From Melioribacteraceae bacterium (lineage in GTDB: Bacteria; Bacteroidota; Ignavibacteria; Ignavibacteriales; Melioribacteraceae): a stretch of 64,000 nt of DNA. The position numbers and the translations under genes are program-made. Location: contig CP129490.1 in the NCBI GenBank assembly GCA_030584085.1, forward strand, positions 589,511 to 653,510, read 5' to 3'. The notes below the pieces were generated by a model. The model ran no database searches. It saw only the letters and a list, made by a program, of their open reading frames with translations, and had not been told where the DNA came from. Of this stretch, positions 47,059 to 64,000 are shown piece by piece (positions within the stretch are counted from its first letter, which is position 1; every line of letters begins with the position of its first letter).

Positions 47059-47071
47059 TTTTCCTTTACTC

Positions 47072-47214: not shown

Positions 47215-48642
47215 TTGTTTGAGACATACGTGAAAAATTCAAAGTTATCGTTCATACTAAATCAATCATTAATTCAAACAGATGTAAATCCATCCCTCCC
47301 ACTATTAGATTTCATTCGTAAAGAGAAACATTTAACCGGAACAAAGGAAGTCTGCAAAGAAGGTGACTGCGGAGCGTGCACTGTTTTGCTCGGTGAACTC
47401 GTCGAAGGAAAACTCAAATATAAAACTGTGACTTCGTGTATTTATCCGGTTGGAAATTGTCAAGGTAAACACGTTGTAACAATAGAAGGCATAAACAAAA
47501 GCGAGTTACTTCTTCAACAGCAAATTTTTGCCGATGAAAATGCTTCGCAATGCGGGTTCTGCACACCAGGATTTATAATGTCGTTTACTTTTTATCTGCT
47601 TAATAACTTCAAATATTCTCACGATGAAGCAATCAACGCAATTGCCGGAAATATTTGTCGCTGTACAGGTTATCATTCAATTATTCGTGCTGTTGATAAA
47701 GTTATAACTGAACTTAAAGATGCTAACGAATCAAGTCACATTTCATATCTAATTGAGAAAAATGTGCTGCCGAAAACATTTGTCGATATTGAAAACAGAT
47801 TGAAGGAAATAATATTAGAGCAAGTCGAAGCAAATGAGAAATCAACTATCTTTATCGGCGGCGGAAGTGATTTGTTCGTACAGAAACCGGATGATCTTTT
47901 AGAAAGAGATGCTGCTTTTCTCGAACATCAGCATTTGAATTACATTGTTGAAAATAACAATCGCATTGAACTTGGCGGCGGAACAACTTTTGAAGAATTC
48001 AAGCAATCCGAAATATTACGAAAGATTATTCCATCAATAAAAAGGGATATTGATTTAATTGCCTCCCTTCCTATTAGAAATTCTGCAACGATCGGCGGCA
48101 ACTTATCAAACGCTTCACCGATTGGAGATTTAACGCTTATTCTTCTTGCGCTAAACTCCACATTAATTTTATCCAATGGCAAATATGAAAGAGAAGTCCC
48201 ACTTTCGGAATATTACCTCGATTATAAAAAACTCAATAAAAAAGAAGATGAATTCATAAAAGCAGTTTGGTTCGAAGTTCCTCAAAACAATTTCAATTTT
48301 AGTTTTGAAAAAGTTTCTAAAAGAACTTACTTAGATATTGCATCAGTTAACACGGCAATGTTAATAGAAACCAACAGTAATAGAATAAAAAATATTTTTA
48401 TTTCTGCCGGTGGTGTTGCACCGGTTCCCAAATTATTGAAAGAGACAAATCAATATTTAATCGGCAAGGATATTTCAATCGATACAATTGATTCTGCTTT
48501 AGCAGTTATGCAAAATGAAATATCACCGATAAGCGATGTAAGAGGAAGTGCTGAGTATAAAAAAATATTGCTTGGTCAATTAGTAAAAGCACACTTTCTA
48601 AAGTTGTTCCCGCAATTAATAAACGAGAAAGAAATTGTATGA
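47215..48642 (+). CDS. xdhA: Xanthine dehydrogenase small subunit ([2Fe-2S] + FAD-binding; Rhodobacter-type XdhA)
   Basis: 475 aa. The start is uncertain (TTG 47215 or GTG 47230). Motifs: CKEGDCGACTV, CGFCTPGF, CRCTGY, FAD domain GGGSDLFVQ and RNSATIGGNLSNASPIGD, C-terminal DVRGSAEYKK. Confidence 0.85.
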   Translation: MFETYVKNSKLSFILNQSLIQTDVNPSLPLLDFIRKEKHLTGTKEVCKEGDCGACTVLLGELVEGKLKYKTVTSCIYPVGNCQGKHVVTIEGINKSELLLQQQIFADENASQCGFCTPGFIMSFTFYLLNNFKYSHDEAINAIAGNICRCTGYHSIIRAVDKVITELKDANESSHISYLIEKNVLPKTFVDIENRLKEIILEQVEANEKSTIFIGGGSDLFVQKPDDLLERDAAFLEHQHLNYIVENNNRIELGGGTTFEEFKQSEILRKIIPSIKRDIDLIASLPIRNSATIGGNLSNASPIGDLTLILLALNSTLILSNGKYEREVPLSEYYLDYKKLNKKEDEFIKAVWFEVPQNNFNFSFEKVSKRTYLDIASVNTAMLIETNSNRIKNIFISAGGVAPVPKLLKETNQYLIGKDISIDTIDSALAVMQNEISPISDVRGSAEYKKILLGQLVKAHFLKLFPQLINEKEIV

Positions 48643-50942
48643 AATCGAGTGACGTAATAAAACACGTAAAAGGGGAATCAATTTTTGTTGATGATATGCC
48701 GGTTCCGCAAGGTACATTGTATGCATCTGTTTTCGATTCAAAAATAGCACACGGTAAAATTACCAAACTCGATTTGTCGGAAACTCTCAAAGTCCCCGGT
48801 GTTGTCAAGGTTATTACTTACAAAGATATACCGGGTGAAAATCAAATCGGTAATATAATTCCCGATGAACATTTACTTGCAGAAGGCACAGTTCAATTTA
48901 TCGGCGAACCTATTGCAATAGTTATTGCTGAAACTGAAATGATTGCAAAGAAAGCTAAGAGCAAAATTAAAATTGAATATGAAGAACTAACTCCAATAAC
49001 CGATCCACGTGAAGCTTATGAAAAGGGAAGTTTAATAATCCCACCAAGAATTTTCTCCATGGGCGATGTTGAAAATTCTTTTAACGATTGTGAATATATA
49101 ATTGAAGACAGAATCGAAATAAGCGGACAAGAACATTTATATCTCGAAACACAAGGTGCTGTTGCAGTTCCGTCTGAAGGCAGAGGAATAAAAATTTATT
49201 CATCGACACAAGGTCCAACAGCAGTTCAAAGCACTGCTGCAAAAGTACTTAACTTAAAGATGCATCAAGTTGAAGTTGATGTGTTACGATTAGGCGGTGC
49301 TTTCGGTGGTAAAGAAGATCAAGCAACTCCTTGGGCTGTGATGGCAGCACTTGGAGCAAAGTTAACTAATAAACCGGTCAAGTTGATACTTCACCGCCAC
49401 GACGATTTAAGAATGACGGGCAAACGTCATCCTTACTCTGCCGATTATAAAATTGGTCTATCAAAAGATTATAAAATTTTAGCATACGAAGTTACATTCT
49501 ATCAAAATGCCGGAGCCGCAGCTGATCTTTCTCCCGCAGTTTTGGAAAGAACATTATTTCATACTACAAATAGTTACTTCATACCAAACGTTAAAGCTAC
49601 TGCAATTTCGTGCAAAACAAATCTTCCGCCTAACACAGCATTCAGAGGATTCGGCGGACCGCAAGGTATGTTCGTGATTGAATCTGCTATTCATAAAGCC
49701 GCGAATAAAATTGGAATTGAGCCGTACATAATTCAAAAGAAAAATTTACTCGCAGAAGGAAACAAATTTTACTACGGTCAGATTGCTGAAAGGGTTAATG
49801 CTTCGAGATGTTGGAACAAAGCTGAAACAAAATATTCATTTGATACGATAAAAAGTTCAGTCGAAGAGTTTAATAAACACAATACCTTAAAGAAAAAAGG
49901 TGTTTCGTTTATGCCGGTTTGTTTCGGTATCTCATTCACAAATACTATGATGAACCAAGCCAGCGCTTTAGTTCATATTTACACTGATGGTTCTGTTTCG
50001 GTGAGTACTGCCGCAGTTGAAATGGGACAAGGCGTAAACGAAAAGATGATAAATATTGCTTCAAAAGTTTTTTCGATTGATAAAGCTAAAGTAAAAGTCG
50101 AATCGACAAACACAACCAGAGTTGCAAACACTTCGCCGACTGCAGCAAGCAGTGCTGCCGATCTTAATGGGAACGCTCTTCTTTTTGCATGCAGCAGTTT
50201 GCTTTCTCGTCTTAAAAAACACGCTGCTGATTTACTAAAGTTAGATGATGAAAATAATATCGAAATAGTTGACGGAAGAATTTTGTGCAACGGACAAGAA
50301 ACTGAACTTGATTGGAATAAATTAATTCGATCAGCAAATCAACATAGAATTAGTTTAACGGCTCAGGCGTTTTATGCAACTCCTGATATCTATTTCGACA
50401 AAAAGAAAGAACAAGGTCACCCGTTCGCTTATCACGTTTACGGAACAGCAATTACTGAAGTTACCGTTGATTGTCTGCGAGGCACTTATGAAATTGATTC
50501 AGTAAAAGTTGTTCACGATTACGGCAAGACTCTAAATCACGCAATTGATTTGGGACAGGTTGAAGGCGGGATTGTGCAAGGTATCGGCTGGATGACGGTC
50601 GAAGAACTTGTACAGGACAGTAAAGGCAGGCTTAACTCAAATTCCTTATCGACATATAAAATCCCTGATATTTATTCTGCACCAAAAATAATTGAGACAT
50701 ATTTTTTAGAAGAATCGGAAAATCCTTACGGACCTTTCAAATCAAAAGCAGTCGGTGAGCCGCCATTGATGTACGGTATTGGAGCATTTTTTGCAATTTC
50801 AAATGCTGTTAAAGCTTTCAATCCTTATGTTGATTTGAAATATTCTTCTCCGATTACACACGAGAAAACTTTGATGCAATTGTACCAAGGCAGAAAAACT
50901 GCAAAAGAAAGATCTAAAATGGCTTCTTCCGAAATAGGATAG
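48639..50942 (+). CDS. xdhB: Xanthine dehydrogenase molybdopterin-binding large subunit (XdhB)
   Basis: 767 aa. Motifs: GGAFGGKE, FRGFGGPQG, KAVGEPPLM. 4-nt overlap with xdhA. Confidence 0.88.
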   Translation: MKSSDVIKHVKGESIFVDDMPVPQGTLYASVFDSKIAHGKITKLDLSETLKVPGVVKVITYKDIPGENQIGNIIPDEHLLAEGTVQFIGEPIAIVIAETEMIAKKAKSKIKIEYEELTPITDPREAYEKGSLIIPPRIFSMGDVENSFNDCEYIIEDRIEISGQEHLYLETQGAVAVPSEGRGIKIYSSTQGPTAVQSTAAKVLNLKMHQVEVDVLRLGGAFGGKEDQATPWAVMAALGAKLTNKPVKLILHRHDDLRMTGKRHPYSADYKIGLSKDYKILAYEVTFYQNAGAAADLSPAVLERTLFHTTNSYFIPNVKATAISCKTNLPPNTAFRGFGGPQGMFVIESAIHKAANKIGIEPYIIQKKNLLAEGNKFYYGQIAERVNASRCWNKAETKYSFDTIKSSVEEFNKHNTLKKKGVSFMPVCFGISFTNTMMNQASALVHIYTDGSVSVSTAAVEMGQGVNEKMINIASKVFSIDKAKVKVESTNTTRVANTSPTAASSAADLNGNALLFACSSLLSRLKKHAADLLKLDDENNIEIVDGRILCNGQETELDWNKLIRSANQHRISLTAQAFYATPDIYFDKKKEQGHPFAYHVYGTAITEVTVDCLRGTYEIDSVKVVHDYGKTLNHAIDLGQVEGGIVQGIGWMTVEELVQDSKGRLNSNSLSTYKIPDIYSAPKIIETYFLEESENPYGPFKSKAVGEPPLMYGIGAFFAISNAVKAFNPYVDLKYSSPITHEKTLMQLYQGRKTAKERSKMASSEIG

Positions 50943-50950
50943 GTGAAAAT

Positions 50951-51913
50951 TTGAATGAAAAAAGATTCTGGCAATTTGCGAGAGATAATATAAACGAATA
51001 TGATAAAGTTCTCCTTTTAACCGTAGCTGATTCTTCAAATCATTCTCCCGGACGACAAGGATTTAAAATGTTGTTGACGCAGAGCGGTTTGACAAAAGGT
51101 ACTGTCGGCGGCGGAATTATGGAGAAACAGTTAATTGATTATGGGATTGAACTTCTTTCCAGGAAAGAAGAAAAACAAATTAAAAGATTACAACATTCTC
51201 CTAAAACAGATCTTGAAGAATCCGGCTTAATCTGCGGTGGATATCAAACAATTATTTTTTCGTTATTAGCTTCTGAAGAAATTAAGTCGATTGATAAAAT
51301 ATTAGAGAATCTCAATAAGCGTGAGAACGGTATATTGAAATTATCATATAACTTGTTTGATTATGATTCCTCCCAATCTCAAAAAGATGATTGTACTTTC
51401 AATTACGAAAATGACACTGATTATATCTACAAAGAAAATATCGGTTTTACGGATACTGCTTATATAATTGGCGGGGGACACGTTGGTTTGGCGGTTTCGC
51501 AAATTATGAAGTTCATCGGTTTTTATGTTGTTGTATTTGATCACCGCGAGGATGTTTTTACTATGAATCAAAACACTTATGCAGATGAAAAAATTATAAC
51601 CGATTATAAGGATGTAAATCAATTTATAAAAGAAGGAAGCAAATCTTATGCAATTATTGTAACACCGATGCATATGGGAGATAAAGATGCGCTCTGTTCT
51701 GTAATTAACTTGGATCTAAAATATATTGGTATGATGGGAAGCGCCCGTAAAATTAAAACTGTGTTTAACAATCTTGTCAAAGATGGAGTCGATAAAAAAC
51801 TCTTTGATAAAGTTTACACTCCAATAGGATTAGAAATTGAAGCCGAAACTCCGGAAGAAATCGCAGTAAGCATTGCAGCAGAAATAATAAGTATAAAACG
51901 GAAAACAGAATAA
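50951..51913 (+). CDS. xdhC: XdhC/CoxI-family molybdenum hydroxylase maturation protein
   Basis: 320 aa, TTG start. N-terminal XdhC_CoxI-like region (GTVGGGIME) and a C-terminal Rossmann-like domain (IIGGGHVGLAVSQ, YIGMMGSARK). Confidence 0.75.
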   Translation: MNEKRFWQFARDNINEYDKVLLLTVADSSNHSPGRQGFKMLLTQSGLTKGTVGGGIMEKQLIDYGIELLSRKEEKQIKRLQHSPKTDLEESGLICGGYQTIIFSLLASEEIKSIDKILENLNKRENGILKLSYNLFDYDSSQSQKDDCTFNYENDTDYIYKENIGFTDTAYIIGGGHVGLAVSQIMKFIGFYVVVFDHREDVFTMNQNTYADEKIITDYKDVNQFIKEGSKSYAIIVTPMHMGDKDALCSVINLDLKYIGMMGSARKIKTVFNNLVKDGVDKKLFDKVYTPIGLEIEAETPEEIAVSIAAEIISIKRKTE

Positions 51914-51918
51914 AAATT

Positions 51919-54900
51919 ATGCAAGATAAATTACACATCTACCCGCTTGAAAAAGTTTTGAAATGGATGCTGTCCGAAGAAAAAGAAGGAAGGATTTTTG
52001 GTTATTACAATGATCTTTTCTTCAAGCCGAAGTCAACCGATCCCTTCAAAGTAGAAAGATATAAACAAACTCTCGCTGCACCGCTTGGTGTTGCAGCCGG
52101 TCCGCACACACAGCTCTCGCAAAATATTGTCTTGTCTTGGTTATTCGGCGCTCGTTATATTGAGTTGAAAACCGTTCAAGTGTTTGATGAGATTGAAGTC
52201 GCAAAACCTTGTATCGATATGTATGATGAAGGTTATAACTGCGAATGGTCTCAAGAATTGAGAATTGAAGAGAGTCTCGGTCAATATATTGATGCATGGA
52301 TTTTGCTTCACATTCTCAGTGATAAACAAGAGTATGAATTTGAAACAATTTTTAATATAAGCGTTGGTTATGATCTAAAAGGAATCAAAAGCGAAAAAGT
52401 TGCTTCATTTTTGTGTAAGATGAAAGATGCTTCGAGTGAGATTGAGGAAAAAATTGAAAAATTAAAGAAGATTTATCCACGTATTACTCATATTAAAATA
52501 CCGAGCAAGATAAGCAACAATGTTACACTTTCAACAATGCACGGTTGTCCGCCTGATGAAATTGAAGCAATAGCAAAACATTTGATGAATGAATACAAAT
52601 TTCATACAGCCGTAAAATTAAATCCCACAATTCTCGGCAAAGAAAAATTAAGAGAAATCTTAAACGAAAAGCTAGGTTATAAAATAACAATTCCGGATGA
52701 AGCATTTGAACACGATTTGAAATTCAATGATGCAAAGAATCTTATAAATGAACTTCTTAATTGTGCACAAGCAAACAATGTTGAGTTTGGTTTAAAATTA
52801 ACAAACACACTTGAGTCGTTAAATCCCTCTCAAATGTTACCAAATGATCAAAAGATGGTTTATATGAGCGGTCGATCGCTTCATCCGCTCACTATTAACG
52901 TGGCCGCGTTACTTCAAAATGAATATCAAGGAAAATTAGACCTTTCATTTTCCGGTGGAGCAGATGCATTTAATTTTGCTGATATTGTTAGCTGTAACCT
53001 GACACCGGTTACCGTCTGCTCGGATTTACTGCGTCCTGGTGGTTATTCACGTCTTCGACAATATTTGTCAAACCTTCAATCAGAAATGGATAAAGCGAAT
53101 ACTTCGACTATTGACAAGTTTATCCTAAGTAAAAACAGTAAAGAAGATTTACAGTCAGCCGCACTTGAGAATTTAAATACCTATGCTGAATCGGTAATTA
53201 ATGATGGACGTTACAAAAAATCTTTTGCGAAGCATCAAAACATAAAAACAAACAGAGAGTTAACCGAACTCGATTGCATTCATCCACCTTGTGTTGAAGC
53301 CTGTGCTATTGATCAAGATGTACCGGAATATTTATATAATATCGGCAATAAAAATTATACTGCTGCATACGAAACGATTGTAAGAGAAAATCCACTGCCG
53401 AATATAACTGGAATGGTTTGCGATCATCTTTGCCAAACCAAGTGTACGCGAATGAATATCGACAATTCAATTTTGATAAGAGAGTTAAAAAGGTTTGCGG
53501 CAGAGAAAGAATCAAATCATTTTGATAAACATTCTTCAAAAATTTTGAATAAGAAAGTAGCAGTAATTGGTGCGGGTCCGTCGGGACTTTCAGCTGCATA
53601 CTTTTTAGCGTTGGAAGGTATTAACGTAGAAGTTTTCGAAGCACACGGTTTCGGCGGAGGAATGGCTTCGTCTACTATACCAAAGTTTAGAATTGACGAC
53701 AAACTTTTGGAACTCGATGTAAAAAATATTGAATCCCTCGGAGTTAAGATCCATTACAATCGCGCAATAACTAAAGATGACTTTGAAGGAATTAGAAATA
53801 AGTTTGATTTTGTTTATTTGGGAGTAGGTGCACAGAAAGGGAAGAAACTTGAAATCGAAGGTGAAGAAAATGAAAACGTTTTTGATCAAATTGAATTTTT
53901 GGAAAAGATTAAACTCGGTGAAAAAGTAAGTCTCGGTAAAAGTGCCGCAGTAATAGGCGGCGGGAACTCCGCGATGGATGCAGCACGAACAGCACAAAGA
54001 TTGGTAAACGGCGGTGAAGGCGTAACGCTGCTCTACAGAAGAACAGTCAACGAAATGCCCGCCGACAAAGAAGAAATTGAAGAATTGATTCATGAAGGAA
54101 TTAATGTTGTTGAACTAACTACACCGAAGAAAATTGAAAAAGTTGATGATAGACTTAGATTAACTTGTATAAAGATGAAACTCGGCGATGAAGACGAATC
54201 GGGAAGAAGACGCCCGGTTGAAATCCCAAACTCCGATTATGAACTGGAGTTTGATTCGATTATAACAGCAATTGGACAAGAAGTAAATTTAGATTTTCTT
54301 CCGAATAAAAAACTGGAAGTGAATTCACACACTAAAGAAACGGAAATTAAAAACGTTTTTGCCGGCGGCGATGCAGTTCGTGGAGCGGATTCATTAATCA
54401 ATGCAATTGGCGACGGCAAAGATGCAGCAAAAATAATTTTATCAAAGATTGAGCAGGAATATAAAACATTAAAACCTGATCTTGAGAAGATTGATTTAAA
54501 AAATTATCAGCATAAATTATCTCATCGAGTTTATGGAAAGGATTTACAATCTATACCATTAGAGCAGCGTAATTCATTCGATTTAGTTAACCCGGTAATG
54601 GATGAAGCAACAGCAGTTGAAGAAGCCTTACGCTGTCTTTACTGTGATGAAATATGTAATATATGCGTAAGTGTTTGCCCGAATCTCGCAAACGTTTATT
54701 ATGAAATCGCCCCTTTCAAAAAGAAATATCCTCAAATCAATTTTGAAAATGGAGATTATAAAATAACAAGTTGGGAAGAGTTTGAGGTTAATCAAAAGTA
54801 TCAGATAATTAATATAAACGATTTCTGTAATGAGTGCGGAAACTGCGATACATTTTGTCCGACCAGCGGAGCTCCTTATAAAGTAAAACCGAAATTTGCA

Positions 54901-55212
54901 TTAAGTAAAGATAGCTTTGATGAAATCAGCAAAGGATATTTCCTTGAAGGAAATAAATTAATTTATAAAGAAGATAATGAAATACACGAATTGGTTTTTA
55001 ACGATAATGAAATTCTATATAGCGATAAGTATTTTGAATCAATTTTTGATTTGGAGATGAACCCAATTAATGTTTTGAAAAAATTTGATCACAATAAACA
55101 GTTAAATACAAAAAAAATTATTGAGATGTATTATTATTTAACAAATTTAAAAGAGACATTTGTTAATCAACAATGGAACACAGATGATACAGATGCGACT
55201 GATTCTCGCTGA
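51919..55212 (+). CDS. ygfK: YgfK-like multidomain Fe-S flavoprotein (DPD/DHOD-like barrel + GltD-like FAD/NAD(P) domain + 4Fe-4S clusters)
   Basis: 1097 aa. Motifs: VAVIGAGPSGLSAAYFLALEG, AAVIGGGNSAMDAART, ferredoxin motifs CLYCDEICNICVSVCPN and CNECGNCDTFCP. Located beside an XdhD-like gene, as in E. coli. The last ~12 codons (NTDDTDATDSR) lie in an inverted repeat. Confidence 0.8.
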   Translation: MQDKLHIYPLEKVLKWMLSEEKEGRIFGYYNDLFFKPKSTDPFKVERYKQTLAAPLGVAAGPHTQLSQNIVLSWLFGARYIELKTVQVFDEIEVAKPCIDMYDEGYNCEWSQELRIEESLGQYIDAWILLHILSDKQEYEFETIFNISVGYDLKGIKSEKVASFLCKMKDASSEIEEKIEKLKKIYPRITHIKIPSKISNNVTLSTMHGCPPDEIEAIAKHLMNEYKFHTAVKLNPTILGKEKLREILNEKLGYKITIPDEAFEHDLKFNDAKNLINELLNCAQANNVEFGLKLTNTLESLNPSQMLPNDQKMVYMSGRSLHPLTINVAALLQNEYQGKLDLSFSGGADAFNFADIVSCNLTPVTVCSDLLRPGGYSRLRQYLSNLQSEMDKANTSTIDKFILSKNSKEDLQSAALENLNTYAESVINDGRYKKSFAKHQNIKTNRELTELDCIHPPCVEACAIDQDVPEYLYNIGNKNYTAAYETIVRENPLPNITGMVCDHLCQTKCTRMNIDNSILIRELKRFAAEKESNHFDKHSSKILNKKVAVIGAGPSGLSAAYFLALEGINVEVFEAHGFGGGMASSTIPKFRIDDKLLELDVKNIESLGVKIHYNRAITKDDFEGIRNKFDFVYLGVGAQKGKKLEIEGEENENVFDQIEFLEKIKLGEKVSLGKSAAVIGGGNSAMDAARTAQRLVNGGEGVTLLYRRTVNEMPADKEEIEELIHEGINVVELTTPKKIEKVDDRLRLTCIKMKLGDEDESGRRRPVEIPNSDYELEFDSIITAIGQEVNLDFLPNKKLEVNSHTKETEIKNVFAGGDAVRGADSLINAIGDGKDAAKIILSKIEQEYKTLKPDLEKIDLKNYQHKLSHRVYGKDLQSIPLEQRNSFDLVNPVMDEATAVEEALRCLYCDEICNICVSVCPNLANVYYEIAPFKKKYPQINFENGDYKITSWEEFEVNQKYQIININDFCNECGNCDTFCPTSGAPYKVKPKFALSKDSFDEISKGYFLEGNKLIYKEDNEIHELVFNDNEILYSDKYFESIFDLEMNPINVLKKFDHNKQLNTKKIIEMYYYLTNLKETFVNQQWNTDDTDATDSR

Positions 55213-55254
55213 TTTTATCTGTGAATATCAATTTATTCTGTGTCATCTGCGTTC
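55176..55254. repeat. Inverted repeat spanning the ygfK stop codon
   Basis: Left arm GAACACAGATGATACAGA (55176-55193) pairs with right arm TCTGTGTCATCTGCGTTC (55237-55254). 18 positions with one mismatch and one G-U. 43-nt spacer containing the stop at 55210-55212. Confidence 0.7.
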
Positions 55255-55272
55255 CTTTAAACGAGATTTAAA

Positions 55273-57834
55273 ATGAAATTTTACTTAAACGGAATTGAAA
55301 AAGAATACAACGGTGTTCCTAAGCAATCATTGCTTAGTTTTCTGCGCAACGAAGAAGGAATAACAACAGTAAAAGATGGCTGCTCGCCTCAAGGTGGATG
55401 CGGTGCCTGCTCGGTTTTAATCGACGGCAAAGGGAGATTATCCTGCACAACTTTTATGGAACGCTTGGAAGGAAAAGAAATTGTAACTCCCGATGGATTG
55501 GATGATTACACTAAGCGCGTTTTCACGAATGCATTTGTTGAAAAAAGCGGAGTGCAGTGCGGATTCTGTATTCCGGGAATTGTAATGCAGTCGGTTGCAC
55601 TGCTGAAGAAGAAACCAAATCCAACTCGAACTGAAATTGCTACGGGATTACAATCAAACATTTGCCGCTGCACCGGTTATAAAAAAATAATAGATTCTGT
55701 TGAATACGCTGCAGAAGCGATTCGTGAATTAAAAGAAATACCAATACCCGAAATAAAGCAAACAGGAGTCGGTAAAAGATATCCTAAATATAATGCTGAA
55801 AATATGGTTCTTGGATTCAGTCCATACGTTGAAGATGTAAAGTTAGAAGGCATGGTTTACGGTGCATTAAAGTTCAGTGATCACCCTAGAGCAAAGGTTT
55901 TATCGATTGATATTACAAAAGCAGAAAAACTAGATGGTGTAGAGAAAATTGTAACTGCAAAAGATATTCCCGGCACAAGAAATACAGGCTTGATTGTGCA
56001 TGATTGGCCGATGATGGTTGATATCGGAGAAGAAACGCGATACATCGGAGATGTTTTGGCTATTGCTGTTGCAGAGAACGAAGCAATTGCACGAGAAGCT
56101 GCAAAACTCATCAAAATTGAATACGAAGTTTTAAAACCGGTAACTGATCCTTTCGAAGCAATTAAAAATGATGCGCCTCAAATTCATTCAACCGGAAATA
56201 TTTTATCAACGACGGAAATTCATCGGGGCGATACCGACAAAGCAATTAATGAATCTTCATTTGTTTCGAAAGGAAGATACACTACACAAATTATTGAACA
56301 CGGTTACATAGAAACCGAATGTTCTGTTGCAAAACCTGAAGAGGGTGGAGTTGAAATTCTCTCACAAGGACAAGGTGTTTACGAGGACAGAAAACAAATT
56401 GCAAAGGTATTAAATCTACCTGAAGAAAAAGTTAGAGTGATACTTGTTCCGAACGGCGGCGGATTCGGCGGCAAAGAAGATTTATCCGTTCAGCATCACG
56501 CAGCACTCTGTGCATTTCTTCTTGATAAACCAGTCAAAGTAAAGCTAAATAGAGATGAATCAGTTCGTATGCATCCTAAACGTCATCCGCTAATAATGGA
56601 TTATACATTAGCTTGCGATAAAGACGGAATGCTGACAGCAATTAAAGCCGATATAATTGGAGATACAGGAGCTTATGCTTCAGTAGGAATGAAAGTTTTG
56701 GAAAGAGCTGCCGGACATGCAACCGGAGCTTATTCAATTCCTAATGCCGATATAGTTAGTAAAGCAGTATATACTAATAATATCCCATGTGGTGCAATGC
56801 GTGGCTTCGGAGTCAACCAAGTTACATTCGCTATTGAAAACTGCATAGACGATCTCTGCGAACAAGGCGGATTTGATAGATGGCAATTTAGATATAATAA
56901 TGCATTAGTTGATGGCGGAGTTGCTTCAACCGGACAAATATTAAAAGGGGGAACGGGCGTAAGAGAAACATTGCTTGCGGTTAAAGATCAATTCTATAAC
57001 GCAAATTATGCCGGCATTGCCTGCGGGATTAAAAACACTGGAATCGGAAACGGAATGCCTGATGACGGAGTTGTGAAAATTGAAATTGTATCGAAAGATA
57101 AAGTTATACTTCATCACGGCTGGACGGAAATGGGGCAGGGCGTAAACACAATGGCTGTTCAATTTTTGTGCAATGAAACCGGTATCGATCCGAGTATAAT
57201 TGAAGTAAAGGTCGATACAAAAATTAACGCAACAGCAGGAATGACAACCGCATCACGTGCTACATCAATCATAGGGAATGCAATTATTGAAGCATCAAAA
57301 AAATTAAAAGAAGATTTGGAGAATTCTGATTTATCCGAATTGAGCGGGAAAATTTACGAAGGGAAATGGATTTGCGACTGGACGACAAAACCGGGCGCTA
57401 CCGATAAAGATATAATTACTCATTACTCTTACAGTTATGCAACTCAAGTAGTTATACTGGATGATAACGGAGAGATTGAAAAAGTAATTGCAGCGCACGA
57501 TGCGGGAAAAATTATTAATCCGAATTTGTTTGAAGGACAGATTGAAGGTTCGGTTCATATGGGGTTAGGTTATGCTATTTCTGAAGAACTTGTGTTGAAA
57601 GACGGTTTCCCGGTGAGTACAAATTTCAGAGACTTAGGAATACTTCGAGCAAGAGAAATGCCGGAAGTTGAAGTGATAGGAGTTGAGGTGAAAGATCCAA
57701 TCGGTCCGCACGGGGCAAAGGGAGTCGGAGAAATCGGCTTAGTTCCAACTGCGGGTGCAGTTGCAAATGCTTTTTACCAGTTTGATAAGCAGAGATATTT
57801 TACATTACCAATTAAAAAGCGAATTAAGAATTAG
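55273..57834 (+). CDS. xdhD: Fused [2Fe-2S]/molybdopterin molybdenum hydroxylase (XdhD / selenium-dependent Mo-hydroxylase-like; no FAD domain)
   Basis: 853 aa. Motifs: CSPQGGCGACSV, CGFCIPG, CRCTGY, GGGFGGKED, MRGFGVNQ, AKGVGEIG. Follows the ygfK-like gene. Confidence 0.8.
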   Translation: MKFYLNGIEKEYNGVPKQSLLSFLRNEEGITTVKDGCSPQGGCGACSVLIDGKGRLSCTTFMERLEGKEIVTPDGLDDYTKRVFTNAFVEKSGVQCGFCIPGIVMQSVALLKKKPNPTRTEIATGLQSNICRCTGYKKIIDSVEYAAEAIRELKEIPIPEIKQTGVGKRYPKYNAENMVLGFSPYVEDVKLEGMVYGALKFSDHPRAKVLSIDITKAEKLDGVEKIVTAKDIPGTRNTGLIVHDWPMMVDIGEETRYIGDVLAIAVAENEAIAREAAKLIKIEYEVLKPVTDPFEAIKNDAPQIHSTGNILSTTEIHRGDTDKAINESSFVSKGRYTTQIIEHGYIETECSVAKPEEGGVEILSQGQGVYEDRKQIAKVLNLPEEKVRVILVPNGGGFGGKEDLSVQHHAALCAFLLDKPVKVKLNRDESVRMHPKRHPLIMDYTLACDKDGMLTAIKADIIGDTGAYASVGMKVLERAAGHATGAYSIPNADIVSKAVYTNNIPCGAMRGFGVNQVTFAIENCIDDLCEQGGFDRWQFRYNNALVDGGVASTGQILKGGTGVRETLLAVKDQFYNANYAGIACGIKNTGIGNGMPDDGVVKIEIVSKDKVILHHGWTEMGQGVNTMAVQFLCNETGIDPSIIEVKVDTKINATAGMTTASRATSIIGNAIIEASKKLKEDLENSDLSELSGKIYEGKWICDWTTKPGATDKDIITHYSYSYATQVVILDDNGEIEKVIAAHDAGKIINPNLFEGQIEGSVHMGLGYAISEELVLKDGFPVSTNFRDLGILRAREMPEVEVIGVEVKDPIGPHGAKGVGEIGLVPTAGAVANAFYQFDKQRYFTLPIKKRIKN

Positions 57835-57843
57835 GTGTTTGGC

Positions 57844-57992
57844 AATGGGGCTGAGTCCCAATTAGTTCTTCTGTTGAATTATTATCCATCGCTTAAAAGC
57901 GAAGACAATGAATAGCGAATTGAGAATTATAATTGCCGTTGGCTTTAGCCAACGGAATATTTAGGTGAAAATTATTGGGCTTTAGCCCCATT
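57844..57992. repeat. Cluster of four small hairpin (REP-like) elements between convergent xdhD and mocA
   Basis: 57844-57863 is TGGGGCT-GA-GTCCCA. 57889-57902 is TCGCTT-AA-AAGCGA. 57931-57958 is AATTG-CCGTTGGCT-TT-AGCCAACGG-AAT. 57974-57992 is GGGCT-TT-AGCCC. TTAGGTG..TGGG(G)CT..AG(Y)CCCA(A)TTAG occurs as a direct repeat at both ends. Confidence 0.75.
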
Positions 57993-58593
57993 AGGTCAAG
58001 TTATTCTTAGTCCTTTTATAATCTTTGGGAGAATCTAAATCCTGAAAAATCAAATCGGTATCACACTCCCAAAATTTCTTTTTAATTGAATTATCTTGTG
58101 TAACATCACGAAGTGTCTTATCAATACTGATTTCCAGAATTTTATGCTTTACGAAATCATCAAATAGAATTGGGTGACCTTTTCTATTGTTATACTTTGG
58201 TTGAATCCAGTTAAATTGCTTATCAATTTGTTGAATAAAATCAGAATAAAAACTTAACGGTAAACTTGGTTGATCTACAAAGTGATAAAGATGCCATTGA
58301 GAATTTGCTTCATTTATACCAGCTTGAAGAGACGTGAACATTCCCGATTGATAATTTTCGTTGAATACAAATCTCAACTTCTCTTTCTGTTTAATTGAAT
58401 TCAAATTCTCTTCAATTTCATTCGATTTAAATCCGGTTACAATTATTACTTCATCACAAACTTGTATAAGTTTTCCAGCAATATTTTGAATGAAAGTCTT
58501 ACCATCGTTTAATTTTAACAATGGCTTAAAACTGTTCATTCTACCGGAGAGTCCGGCGGTTAAAATTATTCCGGTTATAGAGTGGTGCATCAT
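57991..58593 (-). CDS. mocA: MobA/MocA-like nucleotidyltransferase (molybdenum cofactor cytidylyltransferase, YgfJ-like)
   Basis: 200 aa. N-terminal ITGIILTAGLSGRM. The start abuts the upstream stop. Confidence 0.7.
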   Translation of the reverse strand: MMHHSITGIILTAGLSGRMNSFKPLLKLNDGKTFIQNIAGKLIQVCDEVIIVTGFKSNEIEENLNSIKQKEKLRFVFNENYQSGMFTSLQAGINEANSQWHLYHFVDQPSLPLSFYSDFIQQIDKQFNWIQPKYNNRKGHPILFDDFVKHKILEISIDKTLRDVTQDNSIKKKFWECDTDLIFQDLDSPKDYKRTKNNLT

Positions 58594-59847
58594 TTAATTA
58601 ACTTTAATCAAAAAACTTTTCCATTCATTAGTGCTTTTAACAGACAGCTTTTCATTCCACTTTTTTAATGCCTCAAAATCTTTTAAACCACTACCTGTTA
58701 TAAGCAACATTACTTTTTCGTCTTTTTCAAATTTGTCTTTCACTTTTTGATAACCAGCGAAAGTTGAAGCACACGAAGGTTCAACAAGTAAACCGGTTTT
58801 ATAAGCGAGTATCTTTTGAGAAGAAAGTATTTCCTCATCGCTGACTTTAATTCCAAATCCATTTGATTGTTTTACTGCATTTACTGCCATAAAAAGATTC
58901 CGAGGAGCACCCGCGCTGATGCTGTCTGCAATTGTATTTGCCGGTTTATATTCAAATCTATTAGAAGAAAAATGATCAACAACAGCGCAGCTACCTTCTG
59001 CTTGAACTGCAATAAGTTTTGGAAGTCTTTCAATTATGCCGAGCTTTTTCAACTCAAGAAAACCTTTGTAAATTCCGCTTATAATAACACCATCCCCAAC
59101 CGGGACAAAAATGTAATCAGGCAAATTCCCATTTGTATTAATAAAAATATCATAGGCTGCCGATTTCTTTCCTTCAATTGTTAATGGATTGTAAGCGGTG
59201 TTCCGGTTATACCAATTGTTTTTTGTTGAAACTTCCAGACACAAATCAAACGCTTGGTCGTAGTCTCCGTCAACTATATAAATATTTGCACCGTAGGATT
59301 GAATTTGAATTCGTTTAGCCTCGGGAATGTTTTTCGGAACGAAGATGTGTGAAGTTATTCCAAGTCTAGCACAAATACCCGCTAGCGAAGAACCGGCGTT
59401 TCCGGTAGAAGCTGCAGCAATTTCATTAATTCCAAGTTCTTTAGCTTTAAGTGCGACTAAAATTGAAGCACGATCTTTGTAAGAATAAGTTGGATTTCTA
59501 GTTTCATCTTGAAAATATAATTCTCTTCCATCAATATTATATTTCAATATTTGATTAGACGGAAGAGATAGTTTATATAAATCATTTTTATCAATCTTAT
59601 TAAATTCAACCGGCCAAAGATCAGGATAATCCCATATTTTACCGGCTATAAAACTGAGTAATTTGTCTTTACTGTAATTAGCTATTAGACTTTCATAATC
59701 ATATCCAATTGTAAGAACACCTTTTAGTGGTTGGTTCTTTTCACAGCTTCCGCAATCGGGACATAGGTAAATCATTTTTGATTCTATTAATGCAGAATCA
59801 AATTCTGTGTTGCAGTCTTTGCATATATATTTATAATTTATATTCAT
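58594..59847 (-). CDS. PLP-dependent fold-type-II enzyme, threonine-synthase-like, with N-terminal zinc ribbon
   Basis: 417 aa. Zinc ribbon CKDCNTEF...CPDCGS. PLP-lysine motif YSYKDRAS. Also ASTGNAGSSLAG. Unlike the TDGNHGRG motif of E. coli YgeX as I remember it. Confidence 0.7.
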   Translation of the reverse strand: MNINYKYICKDCNTEFDSALIESKMIYLCPDCGSCEKNQPLKGVLTIGYDYESLIANYSKDKLLSFIAGKIWDYPDLWPVEFNKIDKNDLYKLSLPSNQILKYNIDGRELYFQDETRNPTYSYKDRASILVALKAKELGINEIAAASTGNAGSSLAGICARLGITSHIFVPKNIPEAKRIQIQSYGANIYIVDGDYDQAFDLCLEVSTKNNWYNRNTAYNPLTIEGKKSAAYDIFINTNGNLPDYIFVPVGDGVIISGIYKGFLELKKLGIIERLPKLIAVQAEGSCAVVDHFSSNRFEYKPANTIADSISAGAPRNLFMAVNAVKQSNGFGIKVSDEEILSSQKILAYKTGLLVEPSCASTFAGYQKVKDKFEKDEKVMLLITGSGLKDFEALKKWNEKLSVKSTNEWKSFLIKVN

Positions 59848-59854
59848 CTATCGG

Positions 59855-60859
59855 TTACATCGTCAAAGACATAATAGCTTTAGCAGTATGCAGTCGGTTT
59901 TCTGCTTCGTCAAAAACCACTGAAATATTTGGATCATCCAAAATTTCATCTGTTACTTCGTGATTTCTATCTGCCGGAAGTGCGTGCATAAGTTTTACAT
60001 TTTTATCTGCTAACTTTATTCTTCTATCATCACAAATCCAATCGTGATACTTTTCCAAATTTACTTTCATTTCTTTTTTGCATTCGTCTTCATTGTCGAG
60101 ATATTCCTGCACACCGTAAGCTCCAAAACCGCCCCAGTTTTTAGGAATAACTACATGTGCACCTTCAAACGCTTCGTCCATGTTATTAGTGAAACTAATT
60201 TTAGTCCCGTTTTCGTCTGCACGTTTCCTTGCTCTTTCAACAATGTTTTTGCTCAAAGGAAATTCTTTCGGATGAGCAATTGTTAAATCGATTCCAAATC
60301 TCGGGAAAAGTAAAGCTTGTGTCTGTGGAACTGACAAAGGTTTTGAGTGTGTATCTGCGTAGGCCCATGAAACAGTAACTTTTAATCCGCGCGGATCGTT
60401 TCCGAATTTTTCAAATATTGTCATTAAATCTGCAAGTCCTTGAAACGGATGATAAATATCATCTTGTAATGACATTATCGGTTTTGTAGAATGCTTTGAC
60501 ATTTCTGCTAAGTAATCAGCACCGATTCCGTAAAAGCAATTTCTAGAAGCAATTCCGTGACCCATTCTTGATAAAATTATTGCCGTATCTTTTGCAGATT
60601 CGCCGTGTGATAATTGCATTTTATCGGCTGTTAAATCGTGTGCATGACCGCCGAGTTGTGTCATTCCTGCTTCCATTGAGTTTCTTGTGCGGGTTGACTG
60701 TTCAAAGAAAATCATAAACAAAGTTTTGTGAGGAAGGTAAAGATGTGGTTTTTCTTCATAGAATTCTTTCTTTAATTCAAATGATCTTTTGAATACAACA
60801 TCTAATTCTTCTTTTGTCCAATCATCACAAGTTAAAAAGTGCTTTCCTTTTAGATTCAT
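59855..60859 (-). CDS. ygeW: Carbamoyltransferase (ATCase/OTCase superfamily; YgeW-like by context)
   Basis: 334 aa. Motifs: FEQSTRTRNS, HPFQGLADL, MHALPADRN. Context includes ygeY, ssnA and hyuA homologues. Confidence 0.65.
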   Translation of the reverse strand: MNLKGKHFLTCDDWTKEELDVVFKRSFELKKEFYEEKPHLYLPHKTLFMIFFEQSTRTRNSMEAGMTQLGGHAHDLTADKMQLSHGESAKDTAIILSRMGHGIASRNCFYGIGADYLAEMSKHSTKPIMSLQDDIYHPFQGLADLMTIFEKFGNDPRGLKVTVSWAYADTHSKPLSVPQTQALLFPRFGIDLTIAHPKEFPLSKNIVERARKRADENGTKISFTNNMDEAFEGAHVVIPKNWGGFGAYGVQEYLDNEDECKKEMKVNLEKYHDWICDDRRIKLADKNVKLMHALPADRNHEVTDEILDDPNISVVFDEAENRLHTAKAIMSLTM

Positions 60860-60886
60860 TGTTGCTCCTAAATGTAAAATTTAGTT

Positions 60887-61048
60887 AATTGCCGTCCACT
60901 TCTCCCTTAGGGATGGCTATGCCAAGTGGACGGAGAAAATATTTCCAATCTATATGGACTTTAGTCCCATTCAAGATTGCATTATGGGGCTAAAGCCCAA
61001 TTATATTTAAGTGTGTTTGTATTCCGTCGGTTAAAACCGACGGCAATT
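60887..61048. repeat. Second cluster of four hairpin (REP-like) elements between ygeY-like and ygeW-like genes
   Basis: 60887-60937 is AATTG-CCGTCCACTT-22 nt-AAGTGGACGG. 60954-60971 is GGACT-TT-AGTCC. 60981-61003 is GGGCT-AA-AGCCC. 61021-61048 is CCGTCGGTT-AA-AACCGACGG-CAATT. These are the same two families as at 57844-57992, some inverted. Confidence 0.75.
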
Positions 61049-61062
61049 TGTTCTATTTCTAA

Positions 61063-62250
61063 TCAATAACTCATAGCAAACAAAGCATAGAACGCTGATG
61101 CTTTTACAAGATGTTCAATCGGGACTTTCTCGTTTGGTGCGTGTGCTAAAACTTCATTGCCGGGACCAAAACCTATAACTGGGATTTTGTAATAACCGTT
61201 AATCGTTACACCGTTTGTGGAGAAAGTCCATTTATCAACCTTTGGATCAGCTTCAAATAATTGTTTGTACACATCAACCCCTTTTAGAACCAACGGATGA
61301 TCTTCTTCAAGTTTCCAAGTCGGATAATATTTTTCCATTCCGTATTCAAAACCGGTGTATGCTTTGGTTTTATAATCGAGTAAGAATGCTATAGCTTTCA
61401 TATTCTTAATAATTTCATTTACTTGGGAAAGAGCTAATTTGCGGTCTTCACCCCAAGTCAATCTGCGATCCATATGAATTTTAGCATAATCGGAAACGGC
61501 GCAAAGTGAAGGACTATTAGAAATAAACTCGGTGACAGTTATACTTCCTTTACCGAGGAATTCATCAGTGTCAAATTTTTCGTGAAGTTTTTCAATTTCG
61601 AGTGCTGCTTTCGATGCCATATAAATTGCGTTCTTTCCTCGTTCGGGTGCCGAACCGTGCGAAGAAATACCGAAAAACTCAGCGTTCATTTCCATTCTTC
61701 CGCGATGACCGCGATAAATATTTAAATTTGTCGGCTCAGTAATTATCACGGCATCCGGTTTTAAGTTTTCTTCTTCAACAAGATACTTCCAACACAAGCC
61801 GTCGCAGTCTTCTTCCATAACTGTTCCGGTTACGTATAAAGTTATGTCGTTTGTTAATCCAAGTTCTTTTAAAATTTTTCCGGCAGTAACAGCAGCAACA
61901 GGACCGCCTTTCTGATCAACGCTTCCGCGTCCGTGAACAAATCCGTCTTTTATCTCGCCACCGAGCGGATCGAAATTCCAGTTATCCAAATTTCCCATAT
62001 CAACTGTATCAATGTGTCCGTCGATTGCAATTATTTTTTTACCGTTACCGATTCGTCCAATCACGTTCCCTAGTTTATCAATTCTTACTTCATCAAAACC
62101 GGCTTCATTCATTTGTCTTTGCAATTCATCTGCCGCATCTTTTTCTTGTGTGCTTAGTGATTTTTTTTGAATCAACTTTGATAAGTTTTCAGCTGAATAA
62201 TCTTGATAATTTTCAGCTAACTTGTTTACTTCTTTTGCAATGTTTTCCAT
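61063..62250 (-). CDS. ygeY: M20-family metallohydrolase (YgeY-like)
   Basis: 395 aa. Motifs: IDGHIDTV, GRGSVDQKG, EEDCDG. Cluster context. Confidence 0.7.
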   Translation of the reverse strand: MENIAKEVNKLAENYQDYSAENLSKLIQKKSLSTQEKDAADELQRQMNEAGFDEVRIDKLGNVIGRIGNGKKIIAIDGHIDTVDMGNLDNWNFDPLGGEIKDGFVHGRGSVDQKGGPVAAVTAGKILKELGLTNDITLYVTGTVMEEDCDGLCWKYLVEEENLKPDAVIITEPTNLNIYRGHRGRMEMNAEFFGISSHGSAPERGKNAIYMASKAALEIEKLHEKFDTDEFLGKGSITVTEFISNSPSLCAVSDYAKIHMDRRLTWGEDRKLALSQVNEIIKNMKAIAFLLDYKTKAYTGFEYGMEKYYPTWKLEEDHPLVLKGVDVYKQLFEADPKVDKWTFSTNGVTINGYYKIPVIGFGPGNEVLAHAPNEKVPIEHLVKASAFYALFAMSY

Positions 62251-62253
62251 AAA

Positions 62254-63579
62254 TCATCTCAACTTTTTGAATTCTTTGAATAATCTTTCACCTTGTTTAT
62301 AAATTTCTTTTTGAACTTCTGATTCGTTTATTCCAATTAGTCTTTTATCCTTCATTAAAAACTTTCCACCTTTTACTGTTGATGAAACTTGACTTTCGGC
62401 TATGCCGTAAATGTAATGTCCCCAAAAATTATTTTTATTGAAAGGGGTAGGAGGTACATAATCCCAAATAATGAAATCGGCTTTATCGTTTTTGTTTAGT
62501 GTTGAAAAACCGGGGAAAAACTTTTTAACAAATTTTATTTGATTGAAATAAGTATAGATCACTCTTTCGAAAGCTTCATCAGAAGATAGACCGGAATGTC
62601 TCATCAATAAGAAAAATGTCTTCAAAGTTTTAGCCGGATCAGCATGCATTCCGTCTGTACCGCATAGTATTATCTGTTCTTTGGGAATATTATTAAAATT
62701 TGGAACTCCGACAGAGTTATTAAGATTTGAATCCGGGTTGAAAGCAATTGCGCTTCCGTACTCGTAGATTTTTTTATACTCAGATTTAGTTAAATGAATT
62801 GCATGTGATATAATGCTTTTATCGTTAAGTAGATTGTACTTTATTAATCGTGTTAACGGAAGATTACCGAATTTATCTTTACTGATTTTTCTATCTGCCG
62901 GATCTTCGCATAAGTGAATGTGAATTCCCAAATCGTTTTCGTTAATGAAATCAGATACGGTTTTTAGAGTATCATTGTTGAACGTAAATGAAGCGTGAAG
63001 TCCGAAAAGATATTTTATGTCCGGATCAACAAAATCTATTCTCGAACTGTTTTCAATTATGCCTTCGGTTTTTAGCAATTCTCCGTTTCTATCTGATGTT
63101 TCAAAAGCCAAAACACCATTCAATTTTCTTTTACGAAGCACGTCACCTATTACATCCAAACTGCCGATTGTATTTCTCGGTGATGCGTGATGATCAAAAA
63201 TATAAGTAACACCGTTCTTAATTGATTCAAGCGAAGCCATTTCGGCGGATGCACTTGTCATTTCGTGATCGAGTGAGCAATCGAGTTTCCACCAAAGATT
63301 CTTGAGAATGTTGATGAAGTTGTCAGTCGGCCCGCTTATAGGTAAACCTTTTGATAAACGTGAATAAATGTGTTCGTGAAAATTTACATTAGGGATAGTG
63401 ATTACTTTCCCTTTAGCATCGTAAGCATTTTTATCGATCCTAGTTTTTCCATTTAAATAATCATACCAGTTTTTCTTTTTTATCTCTTTGATTTTACCAT
63501 CGGATAAAATCAAATCACCGAAAACCGGAGAAATTGAATTCTTTTTTATACTGCATATCCAAGCGTTAGCAATTTTCAT
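62254..63579 (-). CDS. ssnA: Amidohydrolase-superfamily enzyme (SsnA-like)
   Basis: Likely start is ATG 63579 (MKIANAWICS). The 24-codon upstream extension in the track ORF reads through an intergenic palindrome. HxH motif NFHEHIYS. Cluster context. Confidence 0.65.
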   Translation of the reverse strand: MKIANAWICSIKKNSISPVFGDLILSDGKIKEIKKKNWYDYLNGKTRIDKNAYDAKGKVITIPNVNFHEHIYSRLSKGLPISGPTDNFINILKNLWWKLDCSLDHEMTSASAEMASLESIKNGVTYIFDHHASPRNTIGSLDVIGDVLRKRKLNGVLAFETSDRNGELLKTEGIIENSSRIDFVDPDIKYLFGLHASFTFNNDTLKTVSDFINENDLGIHIHLCEDPADRKISKDKFGNLPLTRLIKYNLLNDKSIISHAIHLTKSEYKKIYEYGSAIAFNPDSNLNNSVGVPNFNNIPKEQIILCGTDGMHADPAKTLKTFFLLMRHSGLSSDEAFERVIYTYFNQIKFVKKFFPGFSTLNKNDKADFIIWDYVPPTPFNKNNFWGHYIYGIAESQVSSTVKGGKFLMKDKRLIGINESEVQKEIYKQGERLFKEFKKLR

Positions 63580-63598
63580 AATTCTCTCAAATTTATAT

Positions 63599-63660
63599 AC
63601 CGCCAAGACGCAGAGACGCAAAGAAAAAGTAATCCCTTTGCGCCTTAGCAACTCTGCGGT
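63599..63660. repeat. Imperfect palindrome between the hydantoinase-like and ssnA-like genes
   Basis: ACCGC..GCAGAG.CGCAAAG (63599-63623) pairs with CTTTGCG..CTCTGCGGT (63636-63660). The inner 7-bp and outer 5-bp stems are perfect; the middle is imperfect. Confidence 0.55.
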
Positions 63661-64000
63661 TAAGTTTTTATTTCAATAAACTTTCCGTAACCAATTTTAC
63701 CAAATGTATTTTTATCTCGATTCATAATCTCTTCACCTCGTAAAAATGTTTGCTTTACTACCGCGTTAAAAGTTATGTTTTCAAAAGGAGTGTACTTTCC
63801 TTTGCTATGCATATTTTCAGCCGAAATAACTTGTGAATTCCATAAATCAATTAATGTAAAATCAGAAGCTTTTTTTTCTGATAATTCACCTTTATCCGTA
63901 AGATTAAAAAACTTTGCAGCATTAGTCGACAACAGTTTGATTGTCTGCTCAAGTGTTAATCTGTTTTTTAGAAAACCCTCACTAAATAAAAAATGAACTC
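63660..64000 (-). CDS. Cyclic amidohydrolase (hydantoinase/dihydropyrimidinase, HyuA-like), C-terminal fragment; gene continues beyond the window
   Basis: The frame stays open to position 64000 (my translation: ...EGFLKNRLTLEQTIKLLSTNAAKFFNLTDKGELSEKKASDFTLIDL...FLRGEEIM...GYGKFIEIKT). This is the typical C-terminal pattern of this family. The track shows only the part from an internal TTG. Confidence 0.55.
   Translation of the reverse strand, partial: VHFLFSEGFLKNRLTLEQTIKLLSTNAAKFFNLTDKGELSEKKASDFTLIDLWNSQVISAENMHSKGKYTPFENITFNAVVKQTFLRGEEIMNRDKNTFGKIGYGKFIEIKT

Follow-up and report, generated by a model that had tools for sequence, protein, structure and literature searches.

Twelve genes in the genome of a Melioribacteraceae bacterium (NCBI GenBank assembly GCA_030584085.1, contig CP129490.1) appear to encode an ignavibacterial variant of the reductive urate, or 2,8-dioxopurine, pathway, one that would carry purines to pyruvate without selenium; we give this reading a probability of roughly 0.68. 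The pathway is known and the version is altered, and the finding is a variant rather than a new kind of system. The window analyzed is a stretch of 64,000 nucleotides at positions 589,511 to 653,510 of the forward strand. The ~19.4-kb block extends from 47215 to ~66707, past the window end at 64000, and coordinates above 64000 continue the window numbering into the genome beyond. Five plus-strand genes (47215-57834) are met by minus-strand genes that converge on them. All open reading frames named in an earlier reading of the same DNA, here called the original prediction, are present in the place and order it gave, and their families are confirmed by hidden Markov model (HMM) scans, for which curated family models with their cut-offs and Pfam were used. 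The host genome is a single contig of 3.74 Mb, 99.35% complete and ~33% G+C, and the closest homologues of the window proteins belong to Melioribacteraceae and other Ignavibacteria metagenome-assembled genomes (MAGs).

The gene set was linked to anaerobic urate degradation by gut bacteria in 'A widely distributed gene cluster compensates for uricase loss in hominids' (Liu et al., bioRxiv 10.1101/2022.07.24.501321), a connection that the original prediction had made correctly, and the route was solved biochemically in two 2025 studies (Li et al., bioRxiv 10.1101/2025.05.19.654654; Liu et al., bioRxiv 10.1101/2025.04.24.650524). According to these two studies, XdhD-YgfM or DOPDH reduces urate to 2,8-dioxopurine, YgfK reduces 2,8-dioxopurine in turn, and ring opening by SsnA yields ureidomethylhydantoin. 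HyuA then opens the hydantoin to 2,3-diureidopropionate, from which YgeW takes off one ureido group as carbamoyl phosphate, which carbamate kinase uses to make ATP. YgeY takes off the other ureido group and YgeX converts diaminopropionate to pyruvate and ammonia (10.1101/2025.05.19.654654; 10.1101/2025.04.24.650524). In Clostridium sporogenes, the pathway receives its urate from a separate xanthine dehydrogenase (XDH), SelD is required by both molybdenum (Mo) enzymes, and all cluster-bearing strains of a gut library had SelD together with YqeB/YqeC (10.1101/2025.04.24.650524). The roles of the two Mo hydroxylases were assigned in the same work by genetics, so the natural experiment that the original prediction saw in two such enzymes within one operon has already been carried out in that species. 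In both papers anaerobic urate degradation is described as dependent on selenium and as found mainly in association with hosts, with selenium supply and engineered probiotics proposed as therapy (10.1101/2025.05.19.654654; 10.1101/2025.04.24.650524). Searching the 2025 papers and their supplements brought up nothing on Ignavibacteria, Melioribacter, Calditrichota, selenium-independence or threonine/cysteine synthase, and a literature search combining Ignavibacteria with xanthine dehydrogenase returned no description of this pathway.

Entry into the pathway would be provided by a classical xanthine dehydrogenase, XdhAB, converting hypoxanthine or xanthine to urate. The first gene encodes an XdhA-type small subunit with 2Fe-2S and FAD domains (47215-48642, plus strand; Fer2_2, FAD_binding_5 and CO_deh_flav_C), and its stop codon is overlapped by 4 nt by the start of the gene for an XdhB-type molybdopterin subunit (48639-50942, plus strand). 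XdhA scores 359 bits against TIGR02963 (cut-off 467) and XdhB 798 bits against TIGR02965 (cut-off 849.5). XdhB matches bovine xanthine oxidase at 552 bits and chain B of 1JRO at 519 bits, and it keeps the equivalents of bovine E802 (GGAFGGKE), R880 (FRGFGGPQ), F1009/T1010 (GISFT) and E1261 (SKAVGEPP). Despite the sub-cut-off subunit scores, XdhAB is by its sequence a credible xanthine dehydrogenase of the Rhodobacter/eukaryote type. The third gene (50951-51913, plus strand) encodes a chaperone for insertion and sulfuration of the Mo cofactor, of the XdhC family (XdhC_CoxI and XdhC_C domains; 217 bits against NF045664 and 116 bits against TIGR02964, both under cut-off), and gives no signal for TIGR03309, the YqeB model. 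The XdhA-XdhB-XdhC order and the complete set of purine-binding and catalytic residues in XdhB are shared with Rhodobacter capsulatus XdhAB-XdhC and bovine xanthine oxidoreductase, from which the present enzyme differs in lying slightly under the TIGR02963 and TIGR02965 cut-offs and in sharing a transcript with YgfK and another Mo hydroxylase in a pathway of the anaerobic type. The start of XdhA is doubtful, as orthologues are 470 aa long and the public protein collection has no 475-aa form; translation may instead begin at the GTG at 47230.

The second hydroxylase (55273-57834, plus strand) begins 60 nt downstream of ygfK and is the predicted reductase of urate to 2,8-dioxopurine. It consists of an N-terminal 2Fe-2S domain fused to Mo domains that start at residue 307, with no FAD domain, and it scores 969 bits against TIGR03311 (cut-off 830.45) versus 251 bits against TIGR03313, the XdhD model. 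Identity to E. coli XdhD is 26%. The equivalents of E802, R880 and E1261, which in xanthine oxidoreductase serve to bind and activate purines, are kept (GGGFGGKE, MRGFG and KGVGE); Glu and Arg stand where XdhD has Gln and Gln. On these features its architecture is that of C. sporogenes DOPDH/XdhAC, in which an FAD subunit is likewise missing and the Mo domains also begin near residue 307, and not that of E. coli XdhD, the name it had first been given. The intervening gene (51919-55212, plus strand) encodes YgfK (DOPOR), an Fe-S flavoenzyme that scores 921 bits against TIGR03315 (cut-off 835.3), shares 37% identity with E. coli YgfK across 1067 aa and, as the DOPOR orthologue, would reduce 2,8-dioxopurine. 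The expectation that XdhAB makes urate and that the Mo enzyme and YgfK then process it anaerobically fits the route solved in the 2025 papers. A sample of 151 genomes of the class Ignavibacteria contains two YgfK subtypes. One scores 1090-1380 bits, is 45% identical to E. coli YgfK and tends to occur together with a three-subunit XdhABC-like hydroxylase; the other, found in this block, scores ~865-885 bits, matches profile positions 2-916 only and tends to pair with a TIGR03311 enzyme.

Several of the enzymes that would follow the reductases are divergent. The reduced 2,8-dioxopurine would have its pyrimidine ring opened by an SsnA-like amidohydrolase (62254-63651, minus strand), for which SsnA is the best family, with 348 bits against NF005540 (cut-off 444) and 32% identity to E. 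coli SsnA; SsnA is the enzyme that Li et al. took as their marker (10.1101/2025.05.19.654654). The 465-aa form of this protein is again missing from the public collection; orthologues have 454 aa, and the match to the SsnA profile makes Met25, at 63579, the likely start. The hydantoin ring would then be opened by a cyclic amidohydrolase of 480 aa (63660-65102, minus strand, with the C-terminal part up to 64000 inside the window), which by its position may take the place of HyuA. The full protein scores 355.2 bits against the allantoinase model (cut-off 357.85) and 249 bits against D-hydantoinase (cut-off 393), nearer allantoinase or dihydroorotase than the HyuA D-hydantoinase. The carbamoyltransferase (59855-60859, minus strand) would replace YgeW, acting on 2,3-diureidopropionate and releasing a ureido group by phosphorolysis as carbamoyl phosphate. 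Against the ornithine carbamoyltransferase (OTC) model it reaches 230 bits (cut-off 306) and against the YgeW models only 174-175 bits (cut-offs 453 and 500), and structures of OTC, YgeW and AOTC lie at about equal distances from it. Its sequence has STRTR and HPFQ, the carbamoyl-phosphate motifs, but HALP instead of HCLP and no ornithine SMG loop. Together these traits define a distinct, as yet unclassified subfamily, outside both the YgeW knotted carbamoyltransferases (or UacY) and the OTCs, whose hallmarks it lacks. The genuine OTC of this genome lies elsewhere and scores 584 bits. YgeY (61063-62250, minus strand), an M20 amidohydrolase with 517 bits against NF009555 (cut-off 321) and 48% identity to its E. 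coli namesake, is the orthologue of the known ureido-amidohydrolase and is predicted to remove the remaining ureido group.

Two further enzymes of the known route are present in the genome, outside the block. Carbamoyl phosphate would yield ATP through an unlinked carbamate kinase, ArcC (386 bits, cut-off 358); the original prediction had considered that it might lie beyond 64000, and it is in fact 1.35 Mb off, paired with the genuine OTC. Two unlinked DpaL/YgeX homologues score 512 and 441 bits (cut-off 276), and 2,3-diaminopropionate might be converted to pyruvate by one of these, by two pyridoxal 5'-phosphate (PLP) enzymes of the block, or by both. The 512-bit homologue (L103:6088-9089, genome ~525.1-528.1 kb) adjoins a gene for formate-tetrahydrofolate ligase, ~61 kb upstream of the window start, and next to the second lies a class D (OXA-type) beta-lactamase gene (L104:9138-9908, genome 3369137-3369907; 262 bits, cut-off 250).

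The resemblance to the E. coli K-12 region ygeW-ygeX-ygeY-hyuA-yqeA ... mocA-ygfK-ssnA-ygfM-xdhD (10.1101/2025.05.19.654654), which the original prediction had pointed out, holds at the level of enzyme categories: Mo hydroxylase, YgfK, SsnA-type enzyme, cyclic amidohydrolase, carbamoyltransferase, M20 hydrolase and MocA. At the level of subfamilies it holds for YgfK and YgeY, which pass their cut-offs, and fails for the proteins called xdhD, ygeW and hyuA, which are, respectively, a TIGR03311 member, a poor match to YgeW and allantoinase-like; identity to the E. coli proteins drops to 31% for YgeW and 27% for HyuA. The original prediction had named placement in unrelated subfamilies as evidence against itself, and the carbamoyltransferase, with its higher score as an OTC, goes part of the way in that direction. 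Unlike the E. coli region, the block has no ygfM, yqeA, yqeB, yqeC, ygeX, transporter or sigma-54 regulator gene. A closer parallel is offered by C. sporogenes (XdhAC/DOPDH, YgfK/DOPOR, SsnA, HyuA, YgeW, YgeY, YgeX and a separate XDH), with which the block shares the fused FeS-Mo hydroxylase, orthologues of YgfK and YgeY, and a second, genuine XDH to feed urate in; in strain ATCC 15579 the carbamate kinase also lies elsewhere on the chromosome. It differs in that its XDH is of the Rhodobacter/eukaryote XdhAB type with XdhC, in the same operon, that divergent relatives replace YgeW, HyuA and SsnA, and that two other PLP enzymes stand in a cluster without YgeX. The host, in turn, is of a free-living Ignavibacteria lineage and not a gut member of the Bacillota, and it is without the SelD, YqeB and YqeC of C. 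sporogenes and the gut strains.

That the divergent genes are functionally equivalent to the canonical ones may be inferred chiefly from related loci. Species-representative genomes were scanned with the carbamoyltransferase, which gave 342 related loci; 80 of them, all with identity of 78% or more, were kept, and these belong to Ignavibacteria, Calditrichota or unclassified MAGs. Neighbors were counted in the 36 related loci that span 19 kb or more. YgeY is nearly constant (35/36), followed by the SsnA-like protein and a threonine-synthase-like (ThrC-like) PLP enzyme (30/36 each), a cysteine-synthase-like (CysK-like) PLP enzyme (27/36), and the amidohydrolase and MocA (21/36 each). YgfK of either subtype occurs in 18, the TIGR03311-type hydroxylase in 14 and a three-subunit XdhABC-like hydroxylase in 12, while carbamate kinase occurs in two and YgeX in none. 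In four loci a canonical SsnA-type gene replaces the SsnA-like one (the one scanned, in L082, scores 548 bits), and in two, L063 and L082, a HyuA-type gene replaces the amidohydrolase (the one scanned, in L063, scores 618 bits against D-hydantoinase). The canonical SsnA or HyuA is found only where the divergent version is missing, and it is chiefly on this mutual exclusion that the case for equivalence rests. Some related loci also gave BLAST matches labeled 'yqeB', which HMM scans place in the ordinary XdhC family.

The block also behaves as a single transferable unit, which favors counting all twelve genes as one module. In a genome of another genus (G129; L015/L016), nucleotide identity of 86-91% is confined to 47281-66704, with block proteins 72-99.7% identical and flanks that are unrelated. 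The flanks and the plus-strand operon recur in G056, a genome from the same genus, with nucleotide identity of only 67-75%; its hydrolytic genes lie on another contig, including a carbamoyltransferase that is 98% identical. This pattern points to transfer of the block or to mosaic replacement.

Selenium markers are absent from the host. In the complete genome, the best match to SelD reaches 30.5 bits (cut-off 125), YqeB and YqeC have no match at E<=0.001, and aragorn finds no selenocysteine tRNA among 45 tRNAs; selD, yqeB and yqeC, once thought possibly to lie past 64000, are found neither just beyond that point nor anywhere in the 3.74 Mb. The same separation is seen across the lineage. In the 151-genome class sample, YgfK passes its cut-off in 17 genomes and SelD is present in 15, with an overlap of 0. 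A 401-genome sample of the phylum has the TIGR03311 enzyme in 13 genomes, 12 of them Ignavibacteria and none of these with SelD, while the one outside the class has SelD; three further cluster-bearing Ignavibacteria genomes are also without it. The sampled genomes are related, and these counts are not independent events. The hydroxylase resembles the selenium-dependent Mo hydroxylase trait (SelD, YqeB and YqeC) in being a full-length, above-cut-off TIGR03311 member with close homologues so named in public records, and departs from it in that the genome has none of the trait's markers. The cofactor genes inside the block are XdhC and a MocA-like Mo-cofactor cytidylyltransferase (57991-58593, minus strand; NTP_transf_3 in Pfam; TIGR03310 at 118 bits, cut-off 186). 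Because selenium markers are absent genome-wide and both XdhC and MocA lie within the block, both Mo enzymes most likely receive an ordinary sulfido Mo-cofactor during maturation, in a selenium-independent version of the pathway.

Several points weigh against this reading. The SsnA-like protein, MocA, XdhA, XdhB and XdhC all score under their curated cut-offs, and no FAD partner (YgfM) is seen for the DOPDH-type enzyme. The roles of the transcarbamylase and the amidohydrolase are assigned only by context. The block holds no purine or urate transporter and no regulator, and the genome has no NCS2 permease and a single GhxQ-like gene far off. Selenium independence is deduced from gene absence, and a route to a selenium-containing cofactor that bypasses SelD is conceivable. 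Furthermore, SelD is present, though without YqeB/YqeC, in two Calditrichota genomes whose cluster is near-identical.

The alternative that survives best concerns the end of the pathway and centers on the two PLP enzymes of the block. The ThrC-like protein (58594-59847, minus strand) carries an N-terminal Cys4 zinc ribbon, scores 181 bits against TIGR00260 (cut-off 167) and is the sole match above the thrC cut-off in the host genome. Most genomes of the family have a housekeeping ThrC at 260-325 bits, to which the cluster-bearing ones add a paralogue of the cluster type at 155-184 bits. An alignment with four threonine synthase structures shows A, T, A and T where the Thermus thermophilus enzyme has T88, N154, S155 and R160. 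In threonine synthase these four residues bind the phosphate of O-phosphohomoserine. The four substitutions, the PLP lysine and the Cys4 ribbon are invariant in 50 of 50 aligned sequences (the protein and 49 orthologues). A role as the housekeeping threonine synthase is ruled out by the replaced pocket residues and by the separate ThrC of relatives, and the protein is instead a cluster-specific paralogue. A housekeeping-type threonine synthase, such as the 260-325-bit copy of relatives, is not found in the host genome; the host may be a threonine auxotroph or make threonine another way. The twelfth gene (65229-66707, outside the window) encodes the CysK-like enzyme of 486-492 aa, which is highly conserved in 35 sequences and has the motif FPTGAHKVGATYGC. 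It scores 57 bits against PALP, and its AlphaFold2 model (pLDDT 85) superposes in Foldseek on the cores of cystathionine beta-synthase, O-acetylserine sulfhydrylase and beta-cyanoalanine synthase. A profile search of Protein Data Bank sequences and the Foldseek search with the model gave generic matches to the family of the first two and no specific function. The model fits an enzyme predicted to use a beta-substituted alanine, for example diaminopropionate or 3-ureidoalanine, and both PLP enzymes of the cluster look suited to such substrates. The PLP enzyme that the original prediction listed is threonine-synthase-like and not YgeX.

It is a serious, if not the favored, possibility that the pathway is the same and that these two enzymes carry out its real terminal steps, replacing YgeX and perhaps bypassing YgeY, for example by PLP-dependent beta-elimination or beta-replacement on 3-ureidoalanine (albizziin) or diaminopropionate, while the unlinked DpaL genes serve other purposes. 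This would account for PLP genes in 30 and 27 of the 36 long loci where YgeX is in none, for the loss of all four threonine-synthase pocket residues in 50 of 50 sequences, for the superposition of the CysK-like model on synthases of beta-substituted alanines and for the inclusion of both genes in the 19.4-kb unit moved between genera. However, the retention of YgeY in 35 of 36 loci means that no bypass is needed, and the genome has two good DpaL homologues. A stronger form of this idea, which we hold only tentatively, joins a selenium-free 2,8-dioxopurine pathway with an XdhC-installed sulfido cofactor to an undescribed PLP step, in which the ThrC-like and CysK-like enzymes act on a beta-substituted alanine (3-ureidoalanine or diaminopropionate); its terminal chemistry would be unlike that of the E. 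coli and Clostridium schemes.

It is considerably less probable that the Mo enzymes still need selenium, obtained through a route other than SelD, or that they are inactive relics. The protein does pass the equivalog cut-off of TIGR03311, the 'selenium-dependent XDH' model, C. sporogenes DOPDH from a selD mutant is inactive, and the SelD-bearing Calditrichota have an enzyme that is 76% identical. Against this stand the absence of SelD, YqeB, YqeC and the selenocysteine tRNA from a complete genome, the lack of SelD in 12 of 12 sampled TIGR03311-positive Ignavibacteria, the XdhC chaperone in the same operon, the lack of YqeB and YqeC in the SelD-positive Calditrichota themselves, and the intact state and strong conservation of the genes, at 68-94% identity over more than 120 homologues.

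M20 hydrolases include allantoate amidohydrolase, and the block could in principle belong to another chemistry altogether. A route for allantoin and ureides (allantoinase, M20 allantoate amidohydrolase and an oxamate-type transcarbamylase) or for another N-heterocycle, to which the amidohydrolase just below the allantoinase cut-off and a transcarbamylase that is not YgeW would lend themselves, is very improbable when YgeY, YgfK and the TIGR03311 enzyme all exceed their specific cut-offs, XdhAB has xanthine-specific residues, canonical SsnA and HyuA are swapped in at the same positions in related loci, and the HIU hydrolase and OHCU decarboxylase that would be required to make allantoin are both absent from the genome, which makes the oxidative route unavailable and rules it out.

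The surroundings of the block contain a few other features. A hairpin terminator lies at ~47071-47110, after the upstream chemoreceptor gene, and on the other side the twelfth gene is followed by a TetR gene and then by an RND efflux operon, both unrelated to the block. The gaps at 57835-57990 and 60860-61062 each contain several short GC-rich hairpins of related sequence, for example TGGGGCTGAGTCCCA, GGGCTTTAGCCCC, TGGACTTTAGTCCCA and CCGTCGGTTAAAACCGACGG.

Taken together, the reductive urate pathway of this lineage adds to the known systems a complete genome in which the selenium trait can firmly be called absent, a classical XdhAB-XdhC in the same operon, clean evidence of the block moving as a unit, and a 'selenium-dependent' hydroxylase family that is decoupled from SelD across the lineage. 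Database names are unreliable here: 'threonine synthase', 'ornithine carbamoyltransferase' and 'cysteine synthase' are attached to members of the block, and 'selenium-dependent xanthine dehydrogenase' is probably a misnomer in this lineage. One transcarbamylase subfamily and two conserved PLP enzymes are now defined, with candidate substrates that are tightly constrained by context. Since the pathway is conserved in a free-living lineage of Ignavibacteria without SelD, YqeB and YqeC, these observations suggest that its key urate reductase can work without selenium; if this independence is true, engineering of the pathway would be simpler.

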